Virus record (IMG/VR): IMGVR_UViG_3300045988_020466
Location: 1-5,683 of that record
Reading direction: 5' to 3' (one strand)
Length of the DNA stretch: 5,683 nt
From: a virus
This document shows positions 2,738 through 5,683 of the stretch, piece after piece. The position numbers and the translations under genes are program-made. The first letter of the stretch is position 1. The number at the start of each line of letters is the position of its first letter. The notes below the pieces were generated by a model. It had not been told where the DNA came from and ran no database searches. It worked only from the letters and a program-made list of their open reading frames with translations.

Positions 2738-3847
2738 ATGTCATGTACAAGACCGCTCGTCAGAATACCGACAAAAGATGGTGATTACCGCGTAGTAAGC
2801 CTAAAAGGATACTTGAGTCACAGCGGTAAAAACCTCGAAATAGTCGCAGATAAAGAGCGTCAGAACCTGAACGAGAAAAAAATCAAAGAGCTGATAAGGG
2901 ACCAGGAAGCGCAGCTGCTACCGTGCGGACAATGTCCGGGATGCAAAATGGCAGCAGCATCCAGCTGGGCGAACAGAATGGAGCTAGAGCTTCCGTATCA
3001 TCAGAATGCGTGGTTTATCACGTTTACATACGATGACGAGAACGTGCCATACCGAATGACATGGGACGAAGGAACAGGCGAAATGCTGGTAGAAAATTAC
3101 AGTCTCCGCTACGAAGACATGCAGAAATTCTGGAAACGCCTCAGAAGGTACATGGAGTATCACAAGATAAACAACGGAAAACTGATGTACTTCCAGTGTG
3201 GTGAATATGGTGGAAAAACACACAGACCACATTATCATGCGATCGTGTACGACATACCATTCACCAAAGAAGACCTAAAGGTCTACAAAAAGAAAAACGG
3301 CGCTGTATATTACAACGTCGATTGGTTTACCGAACTATGGGGCATGGGCCATGTGGTCATCGCAGCAGCAGAGTGGAAAGCGATGGCATACACAGCAAGA
3401 TACACCACGAAAAAGGTCTATGGAAAGGAAGGAAAAGAATTTTACAAAGAGCTGGGAATTTTACCTGAGAAGTGCAGCATGAGCAAAAGACCAGCGATTG
3501 GAGCAAAATACTTCGAAGAACATAGCGAAGAAATCTATGCAAAAGACAAAATCCAGCTGAAGAACGGAAAAGTTTGCAAACCGCCAAGGTATTTTGATAA
3601 GCTATACGATGCACAGTGTCTGAGAAAACCACTCACAGACAAAGAGGTAGAAGACATTGAGCTGACAATAGAAAAAGCCGAGTCCGATGAGCTCAAAGCG
3701 ATAAAGAGAAAACGTCGCAAGTTAGCAAACGACGCACTCTTCGCCAAGCTCAAGCAGAACAACGGCTTAACCATGCAAGAGTATTATAACAAAGAGGAAC
3801 AGAAAATACAAGACAGGTTCAGAAAACTCATCCGGGAAGAAATCTAA
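2738..3847 (+). CDS. VP4: Replication initiator protein VP4 (HUH rolling-circle endonuclease, phiX174 gpA-like), 369 aa
   Basis: Motif I FITFTYDD, motif II HRPHYHAIVYDIPF (HUH), and motif III AYTARYTTKKVYG (two catalytic Tyr spaced as in phiX174 gpA YVAKYVNKK) are present. There is an N-terminal MSCTRPL and a CGQCPGC zinc-ribbon-like motif. All of this is typical of gokushovirus VP4. Confidence 0.88.
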   Translation: MSCTRPLVRIPTKDGDYRVVSLKGYLSHSGKNLEIVADKERQNLNEKKIKELIRDQEAQLLPCGQCPGCKMAAASSWANRMELELPYHQNAWFITFTYDDENVPYRMTWDEGTGEMLVENYSLRYEDMQKFWKRLRRYMEYHKINNGKLMYFQCGEYGGKTHRPHYHAIVYDIPFTKEDLKVYKKKNGAVYYNVDWFTELWGMGHVVIAAAEWKAMAYTARYTTKKVYGKEGKEFYKELGILPEKCSMSKRPAIGAKYFEEHSEEIYAKDKIQLKNGKVCKPPRYFDKLYDAQCLRKPLTDKEVEDIELTIEKAESDELKAIKRKRRKLANDALFAKLKQNNGLTMQEYYNKEEQKIQDRFRKLIREEI

Positions 3848-3871
3848 GGAACGGCTAAATAAGGGAATGCA

Positions 3872-3910
3872 GACGGCGTGGCCTCGAAAGGCTGCGCCGT
3901 CCTTTTCATT
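3872..3910 (+). terminator. Rho-independent terminator after VP4
   Basis: A 12-bp GC-rich stem (gacggcgtggcc / ggctgcgccgtc, with two G-U pairs in RNA) and a 6-nt loop, followed by CUUUUCAUU. Confidence 0.6.
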
Positions 3911-3953
3911 CGGCGCACCGCGCCGACCGGACGGCCTTAAACTCAAAAAGTGC

Positions 3954-3982
3954 TTGACAAGTGTATAATTTAGGTGTATAAT
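3954..3982 (+). promoter_or_regulatory. Perfect-consensus sigma70 promoter P2: TTGACA (3954-3959), 17-nt spacer, TATAAT (3977-3982)
   Basis: Both hexamers match consensus exactly with optimal 17-bp spacing. It lies 28 nt upstream of ATG 4010. It contains tandem GTGTATAAT repeats. Confidence 0.7.
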
Positions 3983-4009
3983 AAAGGTGTAGAAAGGACG
4001 GTGCTTAAA

Positions 4010-4192
4010 ATGACCGAAATCGAAAAAATCAAAAAGAGCATCCAGAACCAGATAGATCAACAGGAAAGAAACTACTACAAAGACCTTAAGAGCAAAGCAA
4101 AGCACACAGATGGTACAGAGATGTACAAAGTAGACAGCCACAAAATCGAAGCGCTGGAAGTAGCACTGAGAATAATCGAAATGTATGAATAA
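4010..4192 (+). CDS. Hypothetical 60-aa highly charged, helical protein (MTEIEKIKKSIQNQIDQQERNYYKDLKSKAKHTDGTEMYKVDSHKIEALEVALRIIEMYE)
   Basis: ATG 4010 lies downstream of the predicted P2 start site, with AAAGGA 11 nt upstream. The GTG at 3974 given in the ORF track lies inside the -10 element and is unlikely to be the start. The ORF is flanked by its own promoter and terminator. I do not recognise a family. Confidence 0.55.
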   Translation: MTEIEKIKKSIQNQIDQQERNYYKDLKSKAKHTDGTEMYKVDSHKIEALEVALRIIEMYE

Positions 4193-4195
4193 ACC

Positions 4196-4242
4196 AAAAA
4201 ACGTGAGGTTGACGAAAATCAGCCTTGCGTTTTTTTTTTTTT
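4196..4242 (+). terminator. Rho-independent terminator, a hairpin flanked by an A-tract and a 13-T tract, which could also act bidirectionally
   Basis: The structure is aaaaaacg-tga-GGTTGA-cgaaaa-TCAGCC-ttg-cgtttttttttttttt. The stem is interrupted, with 13 consecutive T at 4230-4242. It lies immediately after the stop of the 60-aa ORF. Confidence 0.6.
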
Positions 4243-4250
4243 GGTAAAAT
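4242..4250 (+). promoter_or_regulatory. Candidate extended -10 promoter (TGgTAAAAT) for the late gene cluster
   Basis: It matches the TGnTAnAAT pattern. No good -35 is present: TTGCGT lies 14 nt upstream, which is suboptimal. It sits upstream of the VP8-like / VP5 / VP3 / VP1 cluster. Confidence 0.3.
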
Positions 4251-4353
4251 TGACATAGAAAACCAGCACCACAAAACGAAAGGAGAAAGCTGCCTCCAGT
4301 GCTGGTGATCTGTGCTTCATTTATACAAATATGGAAAGAAGGGAGGTGTTGCC

Positions 4354-4458
4354 ATGATCACTTTAAAAGACGTGAAGGGTATCTTCAACCAGCTGCGCAA
4401 GATTTTGGCCATGCTGGATAAGATTTACCACGCACTCAACCTGGATAAGGAGGAATAA
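4354..4458 (+). CDS. Hypothetical 34-aa amphipathic helical peptide (MITLKDVKGIFNQLRKILAMLDKIYHALNLDKEE)
   Basis: Strong RBS GAAGGGAGG lies 7 nt upstream of ATG 4354. The stop is 1 nt before the next gene's ATG. It is a small ORF of uncertain reality. Confidence 0.4.
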   Translation: MITLKDVKGIFNQLRKILAMLDKIYHALNLDKEE

Positions 4459-4459
4459 T

Positions 4460-4579
4460 ATGGCACATCGTATGCCGGTCAACCCGAAAAAGGACAAGCG
4501 GGTGTTTACCAACACCGCGAAGAAAACCAAGAAGATCAACGTCAACCCGAAGCCGTCGAGAGGAGGCATCAGGCTGTGA
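4460..4579 (+). CDS. VP8: Small basic DNA-binding protein (gokushovirus ORF8/VP8-like, phiX174 J analogue), 39 aa
   Basis: RBS AAGGAGG at 4448-4454 lies 5 nt before ATG 4460. The product MAHRMPVNPKKDKRVFTNTAKKTKKINVNPKPSRGGIRL is very K/R-rich and ends in RGGIRL. This resembles the C-terminal RGGIRF of the chlamydiaphage ORF8 protein, as I recall it. Confidence 0.6.
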   Translation: MAHRMPVNPKKDKRVFTNTAKKTKKINVNPKPSRGGIRL

Positions 4580-4668
4580 ACGAAGTACAGCTTATCATCA
4601 AGGTAATAACGCTCAGTCTGCTCATCGCAGATCTGTACATGATCGTCAAAATGATTCGGAGGAAATAA
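4576..4668 (+). CDS. 30-aa single-pass transmembrane peptide (MNEVQLIIKVITLSLLIADLYMIVKMIRRK), a candidate lysis or membrane peptide
   Basis: The GTG start overlaps the TGA stop of the upstream gene (ctGTGA). The RBS GAGAGGAGG (4558-4566) lies 9 nt upstream. The product has a roughly 22-residue hydrophobic core and a basic C-terminal tail (RRK). Its stop is 2 nt before the VP5 ATG. Confidence 0.4.
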   Translation: MNEVQLIIKVITLSLLIADLYMIVKMIRRK

Positions 4669-4670
4669 AG

Positions 4671-4934
4671 ATGGAATTCCAGATATACGCAATCAAGGAC
4701 GAACTTGCCGGGACCTTCGGCAATCTGATGGTGGTCAACGAAAAGGTGGCCGATCGAACAATGAAGTGGATGGCCCAGGAGATGGAGAAGGCCGACTGCG
4801 AAGATAAGCGGGTCTATCTGATGGGCAGCTACGACAACGAGACCGGCCTGATCAGGCCGGAGCAGATGCCGCGTCTGAGCTACAATCTCGAGTTGATGAA
4901 AAAGGAGCAGACGAATGGGAGTCAGAATCTTTAA
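4671..4934 (+). CDS. VP5: VP5-like protein (gokushovirus ORF5; ssDNA synthesis / phiX174 C analogue), 87 aa
   Basis: RBS GGAGG lies 7 nt before ATG 4671. The N-terminal pattern MEFQIYAIKDELAGTFGNLMVVNEKVADRTMKW...EDKRVYLMGSYDNETGLI follows the conserved VP5 signature (IY..KD..a..F..p......A.R.f ... ED..ly.lG.fD.eTG.i). It lies just upstream of VP3, as expected. Confidence 0.6.
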   Translation: MEFQIYAIKDELAGTFGNLMVVNEKVADRTMKWMAQEMEKADCEDKRVYLMGSYDNETGLIRPEQMPRLSYNLELMKKEQTNGSQNL

Positions 4935-5412
4935 GCCCTACGAGGACGAAAAACCGGTGGCACTGCCGAACGAACCGGGAAACCGGTTTGAGCCGGAGTA
5001 CAAGGAGCGGTATGATGACCGCGGACAGCCGTACCTTGAAAAGGTGGGCGAGGTGGACACCTACGAGAAAATCCAGAGCTACAAGGACGAGTGTGACGTT
5101 ATGGCTATCCTGAGCCGATACGCTGCCGGAGACGAGAGCGTCCTGGCAAAACCGGGGTGGTACATCGACACCAGCAAGCTGCCGAAGACCTATACCGAAT
5201 ACATGAACCTGATGAACGAGAAGCGGGAAGAGTTTAACCAACTGCCGCTCAGTATTCGCCAGGCATTCGGCATGAACTTCGAAAACTGGATGGCAACAGC
5301 CGGTGAACAGGAGTGGCTGGACAAAATGGGCATCAAAATTCAGCAGAATGCACAAGAAAAGGTCGATGCTGCCATCGAAGATGTTGTGCAGAAAGGAGAA
5401 AATAAAGAATGA
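4915..5412 (+). CDS. VP3: Internal scaffolding protein VP3 (165 aa)
   Basis: RBS AAAGGAG lies 7 nt before ATG 4915. It overlaps the VP5 3' end by 20 nt in another frame. Its stop overlaps the VP1 start (ATGA at 5409-5412). The product is acidic, with EKIQSYKDECDVMAILSRYAAGD and LPLSIRQAF regions like gokushovirus VP3. It sits directly before VP1. Confidence 0.65.
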   Translation: MGVRIFKPYEDEKPVALPNEPGNRFEPEYKERYDDRGQPYLEKVGEVDTYEKIQSYKDECDVMAILSRYAAGDESVLAKPGWYIDTSKLPKTYTEYMNLMNEKREEFNQLPLSIRQAFGMNFENWMATAGEQEWLDKMGIKIQQNAQEKVDAAIEDVVQKGENKE

Positions 5413-5683
5413 ACCGCAATGCTGAACAGCACTACTCTCAAGTTCCTCATGCAAACGTACCGCGAGCGAGATTCAAGCGAGACTACTCGCTGTTGACGAC
5501 CATGAACGAAGGAGACCTCGTCCCGATCTACTGTGATGAGGTGTTGCCGGCCGACACGGCAAAGATCAACCTGAACGCTCTGATGCGCATGAGCACACCG
5601 CTGTATCCGGTTATGGATAACTGTTACTGCGACTTCTACTTCTTCTTCATCCCGTCGCGTCTGCTCTGGGAACACTTCGAAAA
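5409..5683 (+). CDS. VP1: Major capsid protein VP1, N-terminal part, continuing at window position 1 through the circular junction (5629..5683 duplicates 1..55)
   Basis: ATG 5409 is preceded by an in-frame TAA at 5403-5405 and by RBS AAAGGAG 10 nt upstream. The translation MNRNAEQHYSQVPHANVPRARFKRDYSLL... is the canonical gokushovirus VP1 N-terminus, and the frame is continuous with 3..1370. Confidence 0.85.
   Translation, partial: MNRNAEQHYSQVPHANVPRARFKRDYSLLTTMNEGDLVPIYCDEVLPADTAKINLNALMRMSTPLYPVMDNCYCDFYFFFIPSRLLWEHFE

Follow-up and report, generated by a model that had tools for sequence, protein, structure and literature searches.

Morons of lambdoid and other tailed phages are extra genes that sit between core genes and carry their own promoter and terminator. 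The loci encoding anti-CRISPR proteins (Acrs) also contain genes that are not inhibitors; many small Acrs are acidic, and AcrIC5, an inhibitor of type I-C systems, acts by blocking target DNA binding. Microviruses, to which the present case belongs, are among the most abundant phages of the human gut. In the described acr loci, exemplified by the acr-aca operons of Mu-like phages of Pseudomonas (PMC7913775, PMC13551039), one position is occupied by unrelated small genes across related phages, and orthologues of AcrIC5 are present in Firmicutes and Actinobacteria (PMC7913775). The RHH-type regulator Aca14 binds repeats overlapping the −10 element of its own operon and of the neighboring anti-defence operon (PMC13551039). 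Gut Microviridae are targeted by CRISPR (PMC8530359) and accessory methyltransferases of microviruses are thought to counter host restriction (PMC9239249), while according to the main genomic survey microviruses have very limited accessory repertoires and little genetic contact with the gene pool of other microbes (PMC9239249). Our literature search found no report of anti-CRISPRs in Microviridae.

Here, we analyzed a stretch of 5,683 nt (the window), which is the complete genome of a gokushovirus, a 5.6-kb gut single-stranded DNA phage, 97% identical to KX513873. The genome is circular, and the 55-nt terminal redundancy at the window ends implies a true length of 5628 nt. Directly 3′ of the replication gene VP4 it bears a cassette of promoter, short ORF and terminator, which the original prediction had described as moron-like; the other genes of the window match Phage_F, Chlamy_scaf, Phage_ORF5, REP_ORF2-G2P and phrog_10695 (Pfam, PHROGs). 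Our comparisons suggest that, on balance, this cassette is an anti-defence locus of a gut gokushovirus clade, the 60-aa product of which would bind and inactivate a component of host immunity. The locus resembles acr loci in offering one position to unrelated small genes of related phages, in its strong promoter and occasional stacking, in the presence of a validated Acr family (AcrIC5) at this position and in a candidate repressor with putative sites overlapping the −10 element. Unlike acr loci, it is situated in a 5.6-kb ssDNA microvirus, is usually monocistronic and is closed by its own strong terminator; no aca-type regulator gene is found within the slot operon, the candidate RHH-like regulator being transcribed separately, 1.6 kb away, and the putative operator is composed of direct GTGTA repeats with 13-nt spacing. 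With the known accessory genes and hypervariable regions of microviruses the locus shares variable non-core content, but it differs in having a slot set aside for the exchange of small genes, which tailed phages and other elements possess too.

Architecture of the Cassette

The slot promoter P_slot (3954–3982, plus strand, as are all features below apart from one antisense frame) is made of TTGACA at 3954–3959 and TATAAT at 3977–3982 with a 17-nt spacer, thus coinciding with the consensus in 12 of 12 positions. It is the only copy of exact TTGACA-N16-18-TATAAT in the window, none of 200 dinucleotide shuffles yielded one, and both hexamers hardly vary among about 30 related contigs with VP1 51–99% identical. 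The leader (3991–4009), delineated from sequence, contains an extended Shine-Dalgarno element AGAAAGGAcGGTG at 3991–4003, which ends 6 nt 5′ of the ATG. Some 20 nt past the −10 element the identity to relatives breaks down, and the left boundary of cargo exchange lies within the leader or just 3′ of it. The cargo ORF (4010–4192), candidate for an anti-defence or anti-CRISPR gene and referred to as family a, starts with ATG at 4010, encodes 60 aa and stops with TAA at 4190–4192. Folding and alignment define behind it an intrinsic terminator (4196–4242), which is a 17-bp hairpin with three G-U pairs followed by a run of exactly 13 T (4230–4242); the RNA hairpin 4196–4235 has a free energy of −20.4 kcal/mol (z = −4.8), and 0 of 200 shuffles were equally stable. 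Perfect promoter, short frame and hairpin with a 13-T tract had all been proposed from the sequence and hold as described.

Among 13 distinct variants of the terminator hairpin 96.6% of cells are paired. Its covariation signal is weak (one compensatory pair, 22/500 in the shuffle test) because the hairpin is too highly conserved. One subclade (L030, L044, L056 and L095) has at this position another hairpin with a T-run, unrelated in sequence, and the terminator is kept even in genomes devoid of promoter and cargo. The upstream boundary of the slot region is a hairpin after VP4 (3872–3910, stem 3872–3901) found by scan and folding, with −24.8 kcal/mol, z = −5.0 and compensatory changes in relatives (C12/G19 to T/A in the alignment with MG945797). 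Of the terminators expected on both sides, the downstream one stands as described; the upstream hairpin is stable, but its poor T tract CTTTTCATTC makes it the weaker terminator candidate; likely, it is either a VP4 terminator or a structure of ssDNA. Directly 3′ of the T-run, the right boundary of the unit is formed by an extended −10-like element TGGTAAAAT (4242–4250). Elements of this type (TGnTAAAAT, TAGAAT or TATAAT) come after the terminator in all relatives inspected, and TGGTAAAAT may be regarded as a candidate promoter for downstream genes. P_slot was also considered as the main late-gene promoter, which is at odds with promoter-less relatives keeping both the terminator and the downstream −10-like element.

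Coding Status and Properties of the Cargo Protein

Two other frames were discarded: a longer GTG-started frame from 3974 crosses the −10 box, so that the start there is unlikely, and a 124-aa antisense ORF (3767–4141) reflects the A-richness of the coding strand and, since it spans the exchanged segment, cannot be conserved. An open frame of 60 codons arises in 2.8% of shuffles of such A-rich sequence, and coding status is founded more firmly on dN/dS than on frame length. In comparison with L168 the window ORF has dN of 0.19 with saturated synonymous sites (22.4 of 29.8), while for the adjacent VP4 the same pair gives dS of 0.285 and dN of 0.012; in comparison with L167 omega is about 0.14. 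As judged from these rates, the window ORF is under purifying selection, and we take it for a real gene that has been imported. A search of 1.84 billion representatives brought up just 4 real relatives, a scan of 185,579 species genomes returned no relative of family a, and a 51%-identical homologue adjoins a tyrosine recombinase on a non-microvirus contig.

K, E, D and Q make up 42% of the protein, somewhat less than the share of about 45% given originally, with a net charge of −1 and pI of 6.1; as anticipated, no hydrophobic segment that could span a membrane was found. The AlphaFold2 model (pLDDT 80) is a hairpin of two helices (residues 3–31 and 43–58) connected by a loop, which agrees with the helical nature proposed for the product, but a coiled coil is not demonstrable. 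KHxDG and ALRIIExYE are motifs conserved within family a. Nothing above threshold came from Pfam, PHROGs and NCBIfam, the hits there (DUF2483, YscE co-chaperone) being noise; a sequence search of PDB gave no match, and Foldseek of the model against PDB retrieved generic helical hairpins only (best E = 4), 7YHR not being among them. Thus the product, for which remote homology and structure had been suggested as checks, is linked by profiles and Foldseek to no known family or fold, in keeping with the lack of recognizable motif noted before. Having no Pfam or PHROG family and being absent from canonical gokushovirus sets, the ORF indeed lies outside the canonical microvirus genes.

Exchange, Stacking, and Loss of the Cargo

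Across a set of about 60 related contigs, promoter, leader and terminator are approximately 95–100% identical, but the ORFs between them cannot be aligned even where the genomes as a whole are 80–97% identical. In L002, L003, L039 and L180 identity to the window falls to 30–50% precisely in the stretch from about +20 to +180 relative to the −10 element, and unrelated ORFs replace the window ORF in genomes with VP4 92–93% identical. At least eight cargo families were found in the slot: a, b (with the diverged branch b2 and the related h), c, d, e, f, g and i. Profile comparison of all pairs from a to h (family i was compared by BLASTP only) revealed b and h as the sole related pair. Remote homology of family a to other slot families was rejected at hhalign probabilities of ≤1.6%, and the C-terminal resemblance “..EMYE/..EEYE” of families a and b likewise found no backing in profile comparison.

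Besides simple replacement, the slot may be stacked (d followed by a window-type ORF in L168, i followed by c in L183), empty (L095, L159 and L185) or occupied by 5′-truncated remnants of cargo (L009, L187 and L195), whereas in L188–L190, L192, L194 and L200 promoter and cargo are both deleted; P0006 and P0007 carry in-frame deletion alleles of the window ORF. In the unbiased VP4-based sample about 11 of the 28 related contigs that could be read have a cargo that is missing or decayed, which is the patchy presence that the original prediction had named as a test. GC content of the cassette (0.39–0.40) is close to that of neighboring segments (0.43–0.49). According to these alignments, the terminator is resident, as is the promoter of most genomes, and the ORF alone is exchanged, sometimes together with its own RBS. 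Resident signals combined with an exchanged ORF correspond to a slot with cargo rather than to a classical moron travelling with its own signals.

AcrIC5 Occupies the Same Slot in Sister Genomes

Family f is AcrIC5, as follows from the match to Pfam PF22147 (E = 2.7e-26, 91.9 bits with a cut-off of 27) and to the solved AcrIC5 7YHR (E = 1.1e-11). It is present in the slot of L052, L208/L209 and L180, the last of which has the same gene lengths as the window and an overall identity to it of about 90% (mostly 87–99% per 100 nt), and its AcrIC5-family ORF is a positional allele of the window ORF. At least five AcrIC5 clusters are located on microvirus-sized contigs, and in GenBank entries MG945373 and KT264799 the AcrIC5-like ORF is unannotated. 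The window protein shares with AcrIC5 the slot (in L180 and L052) and a similar size (about 60 aa), but not sequence, profile or fold: there is no PF22147 match, and comparison of the a and f profiles gives a probability of 0.1%. It also differs in charge, the AcrIC5 homologue of L052 being strongly acidic (net −10 versus −1), and this near-neutrality makes it probable that the window protein, unlike AcrIC5, is no DNA mimic.

Family b provides a second connection. Many of its 661 homologues are situated on 30–48 kb siphophage contigs, and on one of these (L174) an AcrIC5-family gene (E = 7.7e-11) precedes family b at a distance of 27 nt. Scanning of species genomes with family b gave no match, the patterns probably being too tuned to microvirus versions; megablast of a b-carrying siphophage gave no match either, and the only match of a distant search was a weak one, 66% identity across 14% of the query, with Butyrivibrio virus Ceridwen.

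Because a sister phage has a known anti-CRISPR gene in the same slot, the 60-residue protein is probably a new immunity inhibitor, and among the functions listed in the original prediction (host takeover, anti-defence, superinfection exclusion) it is specifically anti-defence that the AcrIC5-family genes of sister genomes now favor. Argued purely from slot position, the most likely reading of the window ORF is probably a new anti-CRISPR or another anti-defence protein.

Putative Operator and RHH-Like Protein

Three GTGTA boxes (3961, 3974 and 3987; 3961–3991 in total) with 13-nt spacing overlap the spacer, the −10 element and the predicted transcription start of P_slot and may serve as an operator. 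The arrangement GTGTA-N8-GTGTA occurs three times in the window against 0.01 expected, exclusively at two consensus promoters, and the boxes are conserved at both of them in all genomes of the clade. The second promoter (TTGACA-17-TATATT, 2310–2338), with boxes at 2330 and 2343 that again overlap the −10 element and the transcription start, precedes a 70-aa RHH-like ORF (2379–2591), the whole unit extending over 2310–2591. Its matches to RHH families are all sub-threshold (RHH_1 0.07, DUF6290 0.03, RelB 0.06, ParD 1.1) and its AlphaFold2 model is of low confidence (pLDDT 57), while a strand-helix-helix arrangement is compatible with the conserved N-terminal KRxNxNLT and SDIIRDAI. By analogy with Aca proteins we infer that this protein could be a common regulator of both promoters. 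Likened to Aca14 by its description (PMC13551039), it is also a small protein, here RHH-like, with sites predicted to overlap the −10 element of its own promoter and that of the slot promoter; it differs in having direct instead of inverted repeats, in the weak support for its RHH fold and in a gene that is not adjacent to cargo. A toxin-antitoxin pair of RHH-like protein and cargo was rejected, as the genes are not adjacent, the cargo varies whereas the RHH gene is conserved, and one of the cargos is AcrIC5.

Discussion

From the anatomy of the cassette, conservation of its frame, exchange, stacking and loss of cargo, purifying selection and the occurrence of AcrIC5 in the same slot, we infer how it might be transcribed and regulated, and what its product might target and inhibit. 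Incoming ssDNA would be converted to the double-stranded replicative form, after which host RNA polymerase would fire at 3954–3982 (sigma-70/sigma-A promoter), producing a monocistronic mRNA that is predicted to start near 3989–3991 and, about 250 nt later, to end at the 13-U terminator (4242). The very strong ribosome-binding site would then ensure fast and abundant synthesis of a 60-residue helical-hairpin protein, which may bind and inactivate a host immune component, most likely a CRISPR-Cas effector. Related phages would express other small inhibitors from the same frame of promoter, leader and terminator, with cargos exchanged by recombination within conserved flanks and deleted when unneeded. 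The RHH-like protein probably binds GTGTA boxes at its own and at the slot promoter and may damp expression in an Aca-like manner.

An alternative that we consider unlikely, if worth keeping in mind, is that the cargo, as an accessory factor, helps the phage to compete with other phages or to take over the host (for instance by superinfection exclusion or by inhibiting a host housekeeping protein) and is not an immunity inhibitor. A cargo that is patchily distributed, turns over fast and is expressed early and strongly would fit it equally well, and the lack of similarity between the window protein and known Acrs is compatible with it; moreover, Kirchberger et al. reportedly tied hypervariable regions of microviruses to superinfection exclusion (PNAS, 2021). 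The published exclusion determinant, however, is said to be part of the pilot protein and not a separate small gene, the only slot cargo with known function is an anti-CRISPR, and a second cargo family (b) adjoins AcrIC5 in a tailed phage. Less probable still is a role in the phage's own cycle, such as modulation of replication, transcription or timing of lysis, in which case variability would reflect relaxed constraint on a non-essential helper. Proximity to the replication gene, the small helical protein resembling many regulators and the fact that no lysis gene was identified in this phage by Pfam and PHROGs speak for such a helper, but it is difficult to reconcile with unrelated folds including AcrIC5 substituting for each other in near-identical genomes, many of the relatives being cargo-free, with a homologue located in a non-microvirus element and, for lysis in particular, with the missing membrane segment.

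Even lower we rank a classical moron, i.e., a foreign gene inserted with its own promoter and terminator and mainly benefiting the host or lysogen. The locus shares with morons an autonomous unit between core genes, complete with promoter, ORF and terminator, and a lytic core independent of the slot gene; it is missing in relatives such as L188–L190 (VP4 80–81% identical), where promoter and ORF are absent. To this extent the moron-like architecture initially proposed, a self-contained and patchily distributed unit, is retained, but not the gene travelling with its own promoter and terminator: breakpoints of exchange fall inside the unit, between leader and stop codon, the same conserved promoter and terminator flank empty slots as well as at least eight cargos, and genomes that have lost promoter and cargo still retain the terminator. 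In addition, the resident RHH-like gene has the same promoter design with GTGTA boxes, the composition does not look clearly foreign, GC of the cassette being only slightly below its surroundings, and the genome has no integrase or lysogeny module according to Pfam and PHROGs. That the ORF yields no functional protein, the region being a spacer or the transcript itself being the product, is scarcely credible, since the appearance of comparable frames in shuffles and the lack of a family match are opposed by dN/dS values far under 1 toward relatives of 72% and 51% identity, in which synonymous change has reached saturation, by the conserved motifs, the strong and correctly spaced RBS and the confident structure prediction, and by an Rfam search of the window that matched no family.

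Returning to the anti-defence reading, a more specific version can be put forward tentatively and at somewhat less than even chance: the slot may be a dedicated gokushovirus exchange site for immune inhibitors, comprising at least seven uncharacterized families in addition to AcrIC5, with the window protein as a non-DNA-mimic anti-CRISPR and the RHH-like protein as an off-switch acting via GTGTA. Families a, b/h, c, d, e, g and i are position-defined candidates for immune inhibitors of 50–85 aa, and, since microvirus genomes can be synthesized whole, each cargo is exchangeable in an otherwise identical phage. The conserved slot swapping genes that are shared with tailed phages alters the picture of microviruses as isolated from other elements, and it would explain by what means a phage of only 5.6 kb can withstand CRISPR attack on its replicative form. 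If the more specific version is true, no anti-CRISPR locus will have been described in Microviridae before this one, and it would mean that minimal phages share with tailed phages a common pool of small counter-defence genes.

Genome Organization and Anatomy of the Cassette

The window represents a complete circular gokushovirus of 5683 bases including terminal redundancy, since its first 55 nt (1-55) recur at 5629-5683, implying a circular genome with a true length of 5628 nt; Human gut gokushovirus SH-CHD10 (KX513873) is 97% identical to it. All genes are carried by the + strand: VP1 (from ~5409 across the junction to 1370), VP2 (1383-2309), an RHH-like ORF of 70 aa (2379-2591), the replication initiator VP4 (2738-3847), the target ORF (4010-4192), a conserved 34-aa ORF (4354-4458), a VP8-like DNA-binding protein of 39 aa (4460-4579), a hydrophobic ORF of 30 aa (4576-4668), VP5 (4671-4934), and VP3 (4915-5412). 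A perfect 19-bp hairpin at 2672-2717 (-36.4 kcal/mol, z = -6.9), located ~20 nt before the VP4 start codon, is a candidate for replication origin, Rep recognition site, or translational control element. The 30-aa ORF at 4576-4668 (MNEVQLIIKVITLSLLIADLYMIVKMIRRK), limited to the window and two related contigs (L001 and L146), marks a second hypervariable spot with identity to contigs L002 and L003 falling to 14-15%, and is possibly a lysis or membrane peptide. Upstream of the 34-aa ORF lies a structured element (4263-4305, CCAGCAC...GTGCTGG, z = -3.9), whose variants in relatives are compensatory (CCAGAG...CTCTGG, and CCGGCGCC...GGCGCCGG in L039).

Each element of the self-contained transcription unit proposed in the original prediction was found in its place. 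The promoter (P_slot, TTGACA-17-TATAAT, 3954-3982) agrees with consensus at 12/12 positions and is the sole exact match within the window, none being obtained in 200 shuffles. The target ORF starts with ATG at 4010, preceded at 6 nt by an extended Shine-Dalgarno sequence AGAAAGGAcGGTG, and ends with TAA at 4190-4192; its 60-aa product (K+E+D+Q 42%, pI 6.1, net charge -1) is modeled by AlphaFold2 as helix 3-31, loop, and helix 43-58 (pLDDT 80). The terminator combines a 17-bp hairpin (4196-4235, -20.4 kcal/mol, z = -4.8) with a run of exactly 13 T (4230-4242), while the hairpin after VP4 (3872-3901) is highly stable (-24.8 kcal/mol, z = -5.0), though its T tract is poor. In this hairpin, the 3′ arm GCCGTCC may alternatively pair with GGACGGC at 3929-3935; this region (3895-3935) encloses a small hairpin (3910-3926), replaced in relatives by a different and longer one, and might represent either an origin structure in ssDNA or an alternative fold of the RNA.

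Fixed Frame and Exchanged Cargo

Alignment of the region downstream of VP4 between the window and four GenBank relatives (80-97% identity overall) revealed nearly invariant P_slot, leader, start codon, and terminator, and an unalignable segment between start codon and terminator, where every genome carries an open frame of its own, 50-65 codons long, with the common start. About 60 further contigs were gathered by motif scans of IMG/VR and metagenomes, homologue look-ups, and an unbiased VP4-based scan. The clade sharing this frame (hereafter slot) spans 51-99% identity to the window for VP1 and 47-98% for VP4; in one subclade, a second hairpin with T-run, unrelated to the first, occupies the terminator position. 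At least eight families of exchangeable ORF (cargo) were distinguished (a, b, c, d, e, f, g, and i, with h related to b), among them the window type (a), the "LYDGGWRS" family (b, including diverged branch b2 and related family h), and a Cys-rich one (e). In profile comparisons covering every pair from a to h, only b and h proved related; family i was checked against the rest by BLASTP alone.

Among genomes with VP4 92-93% identical to that of the window, the cargo is b2, d, e, or what is left of c. In a sliding-window comparison with L002, L003, L039, and L180, identity holds at 85-99%, dropping to 30-50% solely at about +20 to +180 from the -10 element. Tandem cargos occur in two contigs, d followed by a window-type ORF in L168 and i followed by c in L183. 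In L003 and L020, the family d protein is 100% identical and cassette DNA 92-98%, while adjacent VP4 DNA is just ~40-70% identical (VP4 proteins being 92% and 47% identical to that of the window), which indicates modular recombination around the slot. In L150 (an ERZ807384 contig), a Nextera adapter CTGTCTCTTATACACATCT 3′ of the cargo is an assembly artefact, so its terminator region is unreliable.

The slot is empty or decayed in ~11 of 28 readable contigs of the VP4-based sample. The promoter is joined to the terminator through short repeats in L095, L159, and L185; cargo is truncated at the 5′ end in L009, L187, and L195; L192, L194, and L200 retain the terminator with promoter and cargo deleted, and L188-L190 are devoid of promoter and cargo. 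Window ORF alleles likewise include in-frame deletions (P0006 and P0007) and a read-through (P0005).

The proposal that the whole unit is a moron holds as far as its own promoter, terminator, and absence from relatives are concerned, but the exchange boundaries fall inside the unit. All cargos and empty slots are flanked by the same signals, the terminator outlasts promoter loss, and the GC content of the cassette (0.39-0.40) differs little from that of neighboring windows (0.43-0.49). In its working the cassette resembles a moron, but a resident slot for expression that takes mobile cargo describes it better. Directly 3′ of the terminator T-run lies an extended -10-like sequence TGGTAAAAT (4242-4250); a -10 element of the TGnTAAAAT type is found 3′ of the terminator in every relative inspected, even where the slot promoter is missing. 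The VP8-VP5-VP3-VP1-VP2 block is likely transcribed from it, which is probably why downstream genes are independent of P_slot.

Relatives and Selection of the Window ORF

Among 5.8 billion proteins, a word-index search picked up only seven relatives, of which four are near-identical and the other three are shortened or read-through forms. When 1.84 billion representatives were searched exhaustively with HMMER, only four real ones emerged (P0005 and P0007 once more, P0008 with 72% identity, and P0009 with 51%), and no relative was found among 185,579 bacterial and archaeal species (one genome per species). Motifs IKxSIxxQI, KHxDG, and ALRIIExYE are kept in the family. Comparison with the 72% relative in L168 gave dN 0.19 with saturated synonymous sites (22.4 changes per 29.8 sites), and omega is ~0.14 against the 51% relative, arguing for purifying selection on the protein. 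In the neighboring VP4 segment, L168 and the window are separated by dN 0.012 and dS 0.285 only; the cargo has thus diverged much more than its flank, and the allele must be far older. These comparisons indicate that the cargo allele was acquired by recombination and did not diverge in place. P0009 is encoded, with its own ribosome-binding site and terminator, beside a tyrosine recombinase on a GC-richer contig, another kind of mobile element.

Putative Operators and Host

The window contains three copies of the motif GTGTA-N8-GTGTA where 0.01 would be expected, all confined to the two consensus promoters and overlapping the -10 element and predicted transcription start in P_slot (boxes at 3961, 3974, and 3987) and in the promoter of the RHH-like gene (2330 and 2343). 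The latter (TTGACA-17-TATATT, near-consensus) forms with its + strand ORF a unit at 2310-2591. Both promoters with their boxes, as well as the ORF, are present in every clade genome, and the N-terminal KRxNxNLT and SDIIRDAI helix of the protein are invariant though overall identity falls to 41%. Its sequence hints weakly at an RHH fold. Aca14, an RHH-type Aca described in 2026, represses its own and the neighboring anti-defence operon via repeats overlapping -10 (PMC13551039); repeats in the window likewise overlap -10 at two promoters, although they are direct rather than inverted. By this analogy, the RHH-like protein may regulate the slot through the putative GTGTA operators, and it may be the master regulator of the phage.

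Several hints point to a host in Bacillota: consensus sigma-A-type promoters, leaders complementary to AGAAAGGAGGTG, weak similarity of a siphophage carrying family b to a Butyrivibrio phage, and published targeting of gut Microviridae by Firmicutes CRISPR.

Probable Anti-Defence Link

The cargo of L052 covers the whole Pfam profile of AcrIC5 (PF22147; E = 2.7e-26, 91.9 bits at a cut-off of 27) and matches the solved Pseudomonas AcrIC5 7YHR (E = 1.1e-11). At least five AcrIC5-family clusters (73-100% identical) reside on contigs of 4.2-5.8 kb, four being of complete-genome length (5.65-5.8 kb), and unannotated AcrIC5-like ORFs are present in GenBank microviruses MG945373.1 (3769-3951) and KT264799.1 (3711-3878), with 69% and 55% identity to the L052 cargo, respectively. 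The decisive case is L180, a gokushovirus whose genes match those of the window in length and whose overall identity to it is ~90% (87-99% in most 100-nt stretches); there, an AcrIC5-family gene takes the exact position of the window ORF and shares its promoter and terminator. The idea of an accessory unit with possible anti-defence role is thereby strengthened and made more specific. A separate line of evidence comes from family b, whose 661 homologues include many on 30-48 kb siphophage contigs encoding ERF, Gp157, and CHAP endolysins; in one of them, L174, an AcrIC5-family gene (E = 7.7e-11) precedes b at a distance of 27 nt. In siphophage contigs L169-L176, family b, joined by AcrIC5 in L174, belongs to a plus-strand island of variable content beside HTH regulators, made up of small genes of 49-168 aa; the others among these are further anti-defence candidates.

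The slot bears the signature exploited in anti-CRISPR discovery by association: a single position with a strong promoter that hosts numerous unrelated small genes, at times stacked and often lost, with a validated Acr among them. AcrIC5 blocks binding of type I-C Cascade to target DNA and has orthologues in Firmicutes and Actinobacteria (PMC7913775; bioRxiv 10.1101/2025.06.06.658234), and hundreds of Microviridae from the human gut are targeted by CRISPR (PMC8530359). Literature searches turned up no report of anti-CRISPR loci in Microviridae, and the principal survey of gene content in microviruses emphasizes genetic isolation and limited accessory repertoires (PMC9239249). Considering the genomic context, we lean, with moderate confidence, toward inhibition of host immunity by a new protein family as the most likely function of the window protein; less confidently than this, CRISPR-Cas would be its most plausible target.
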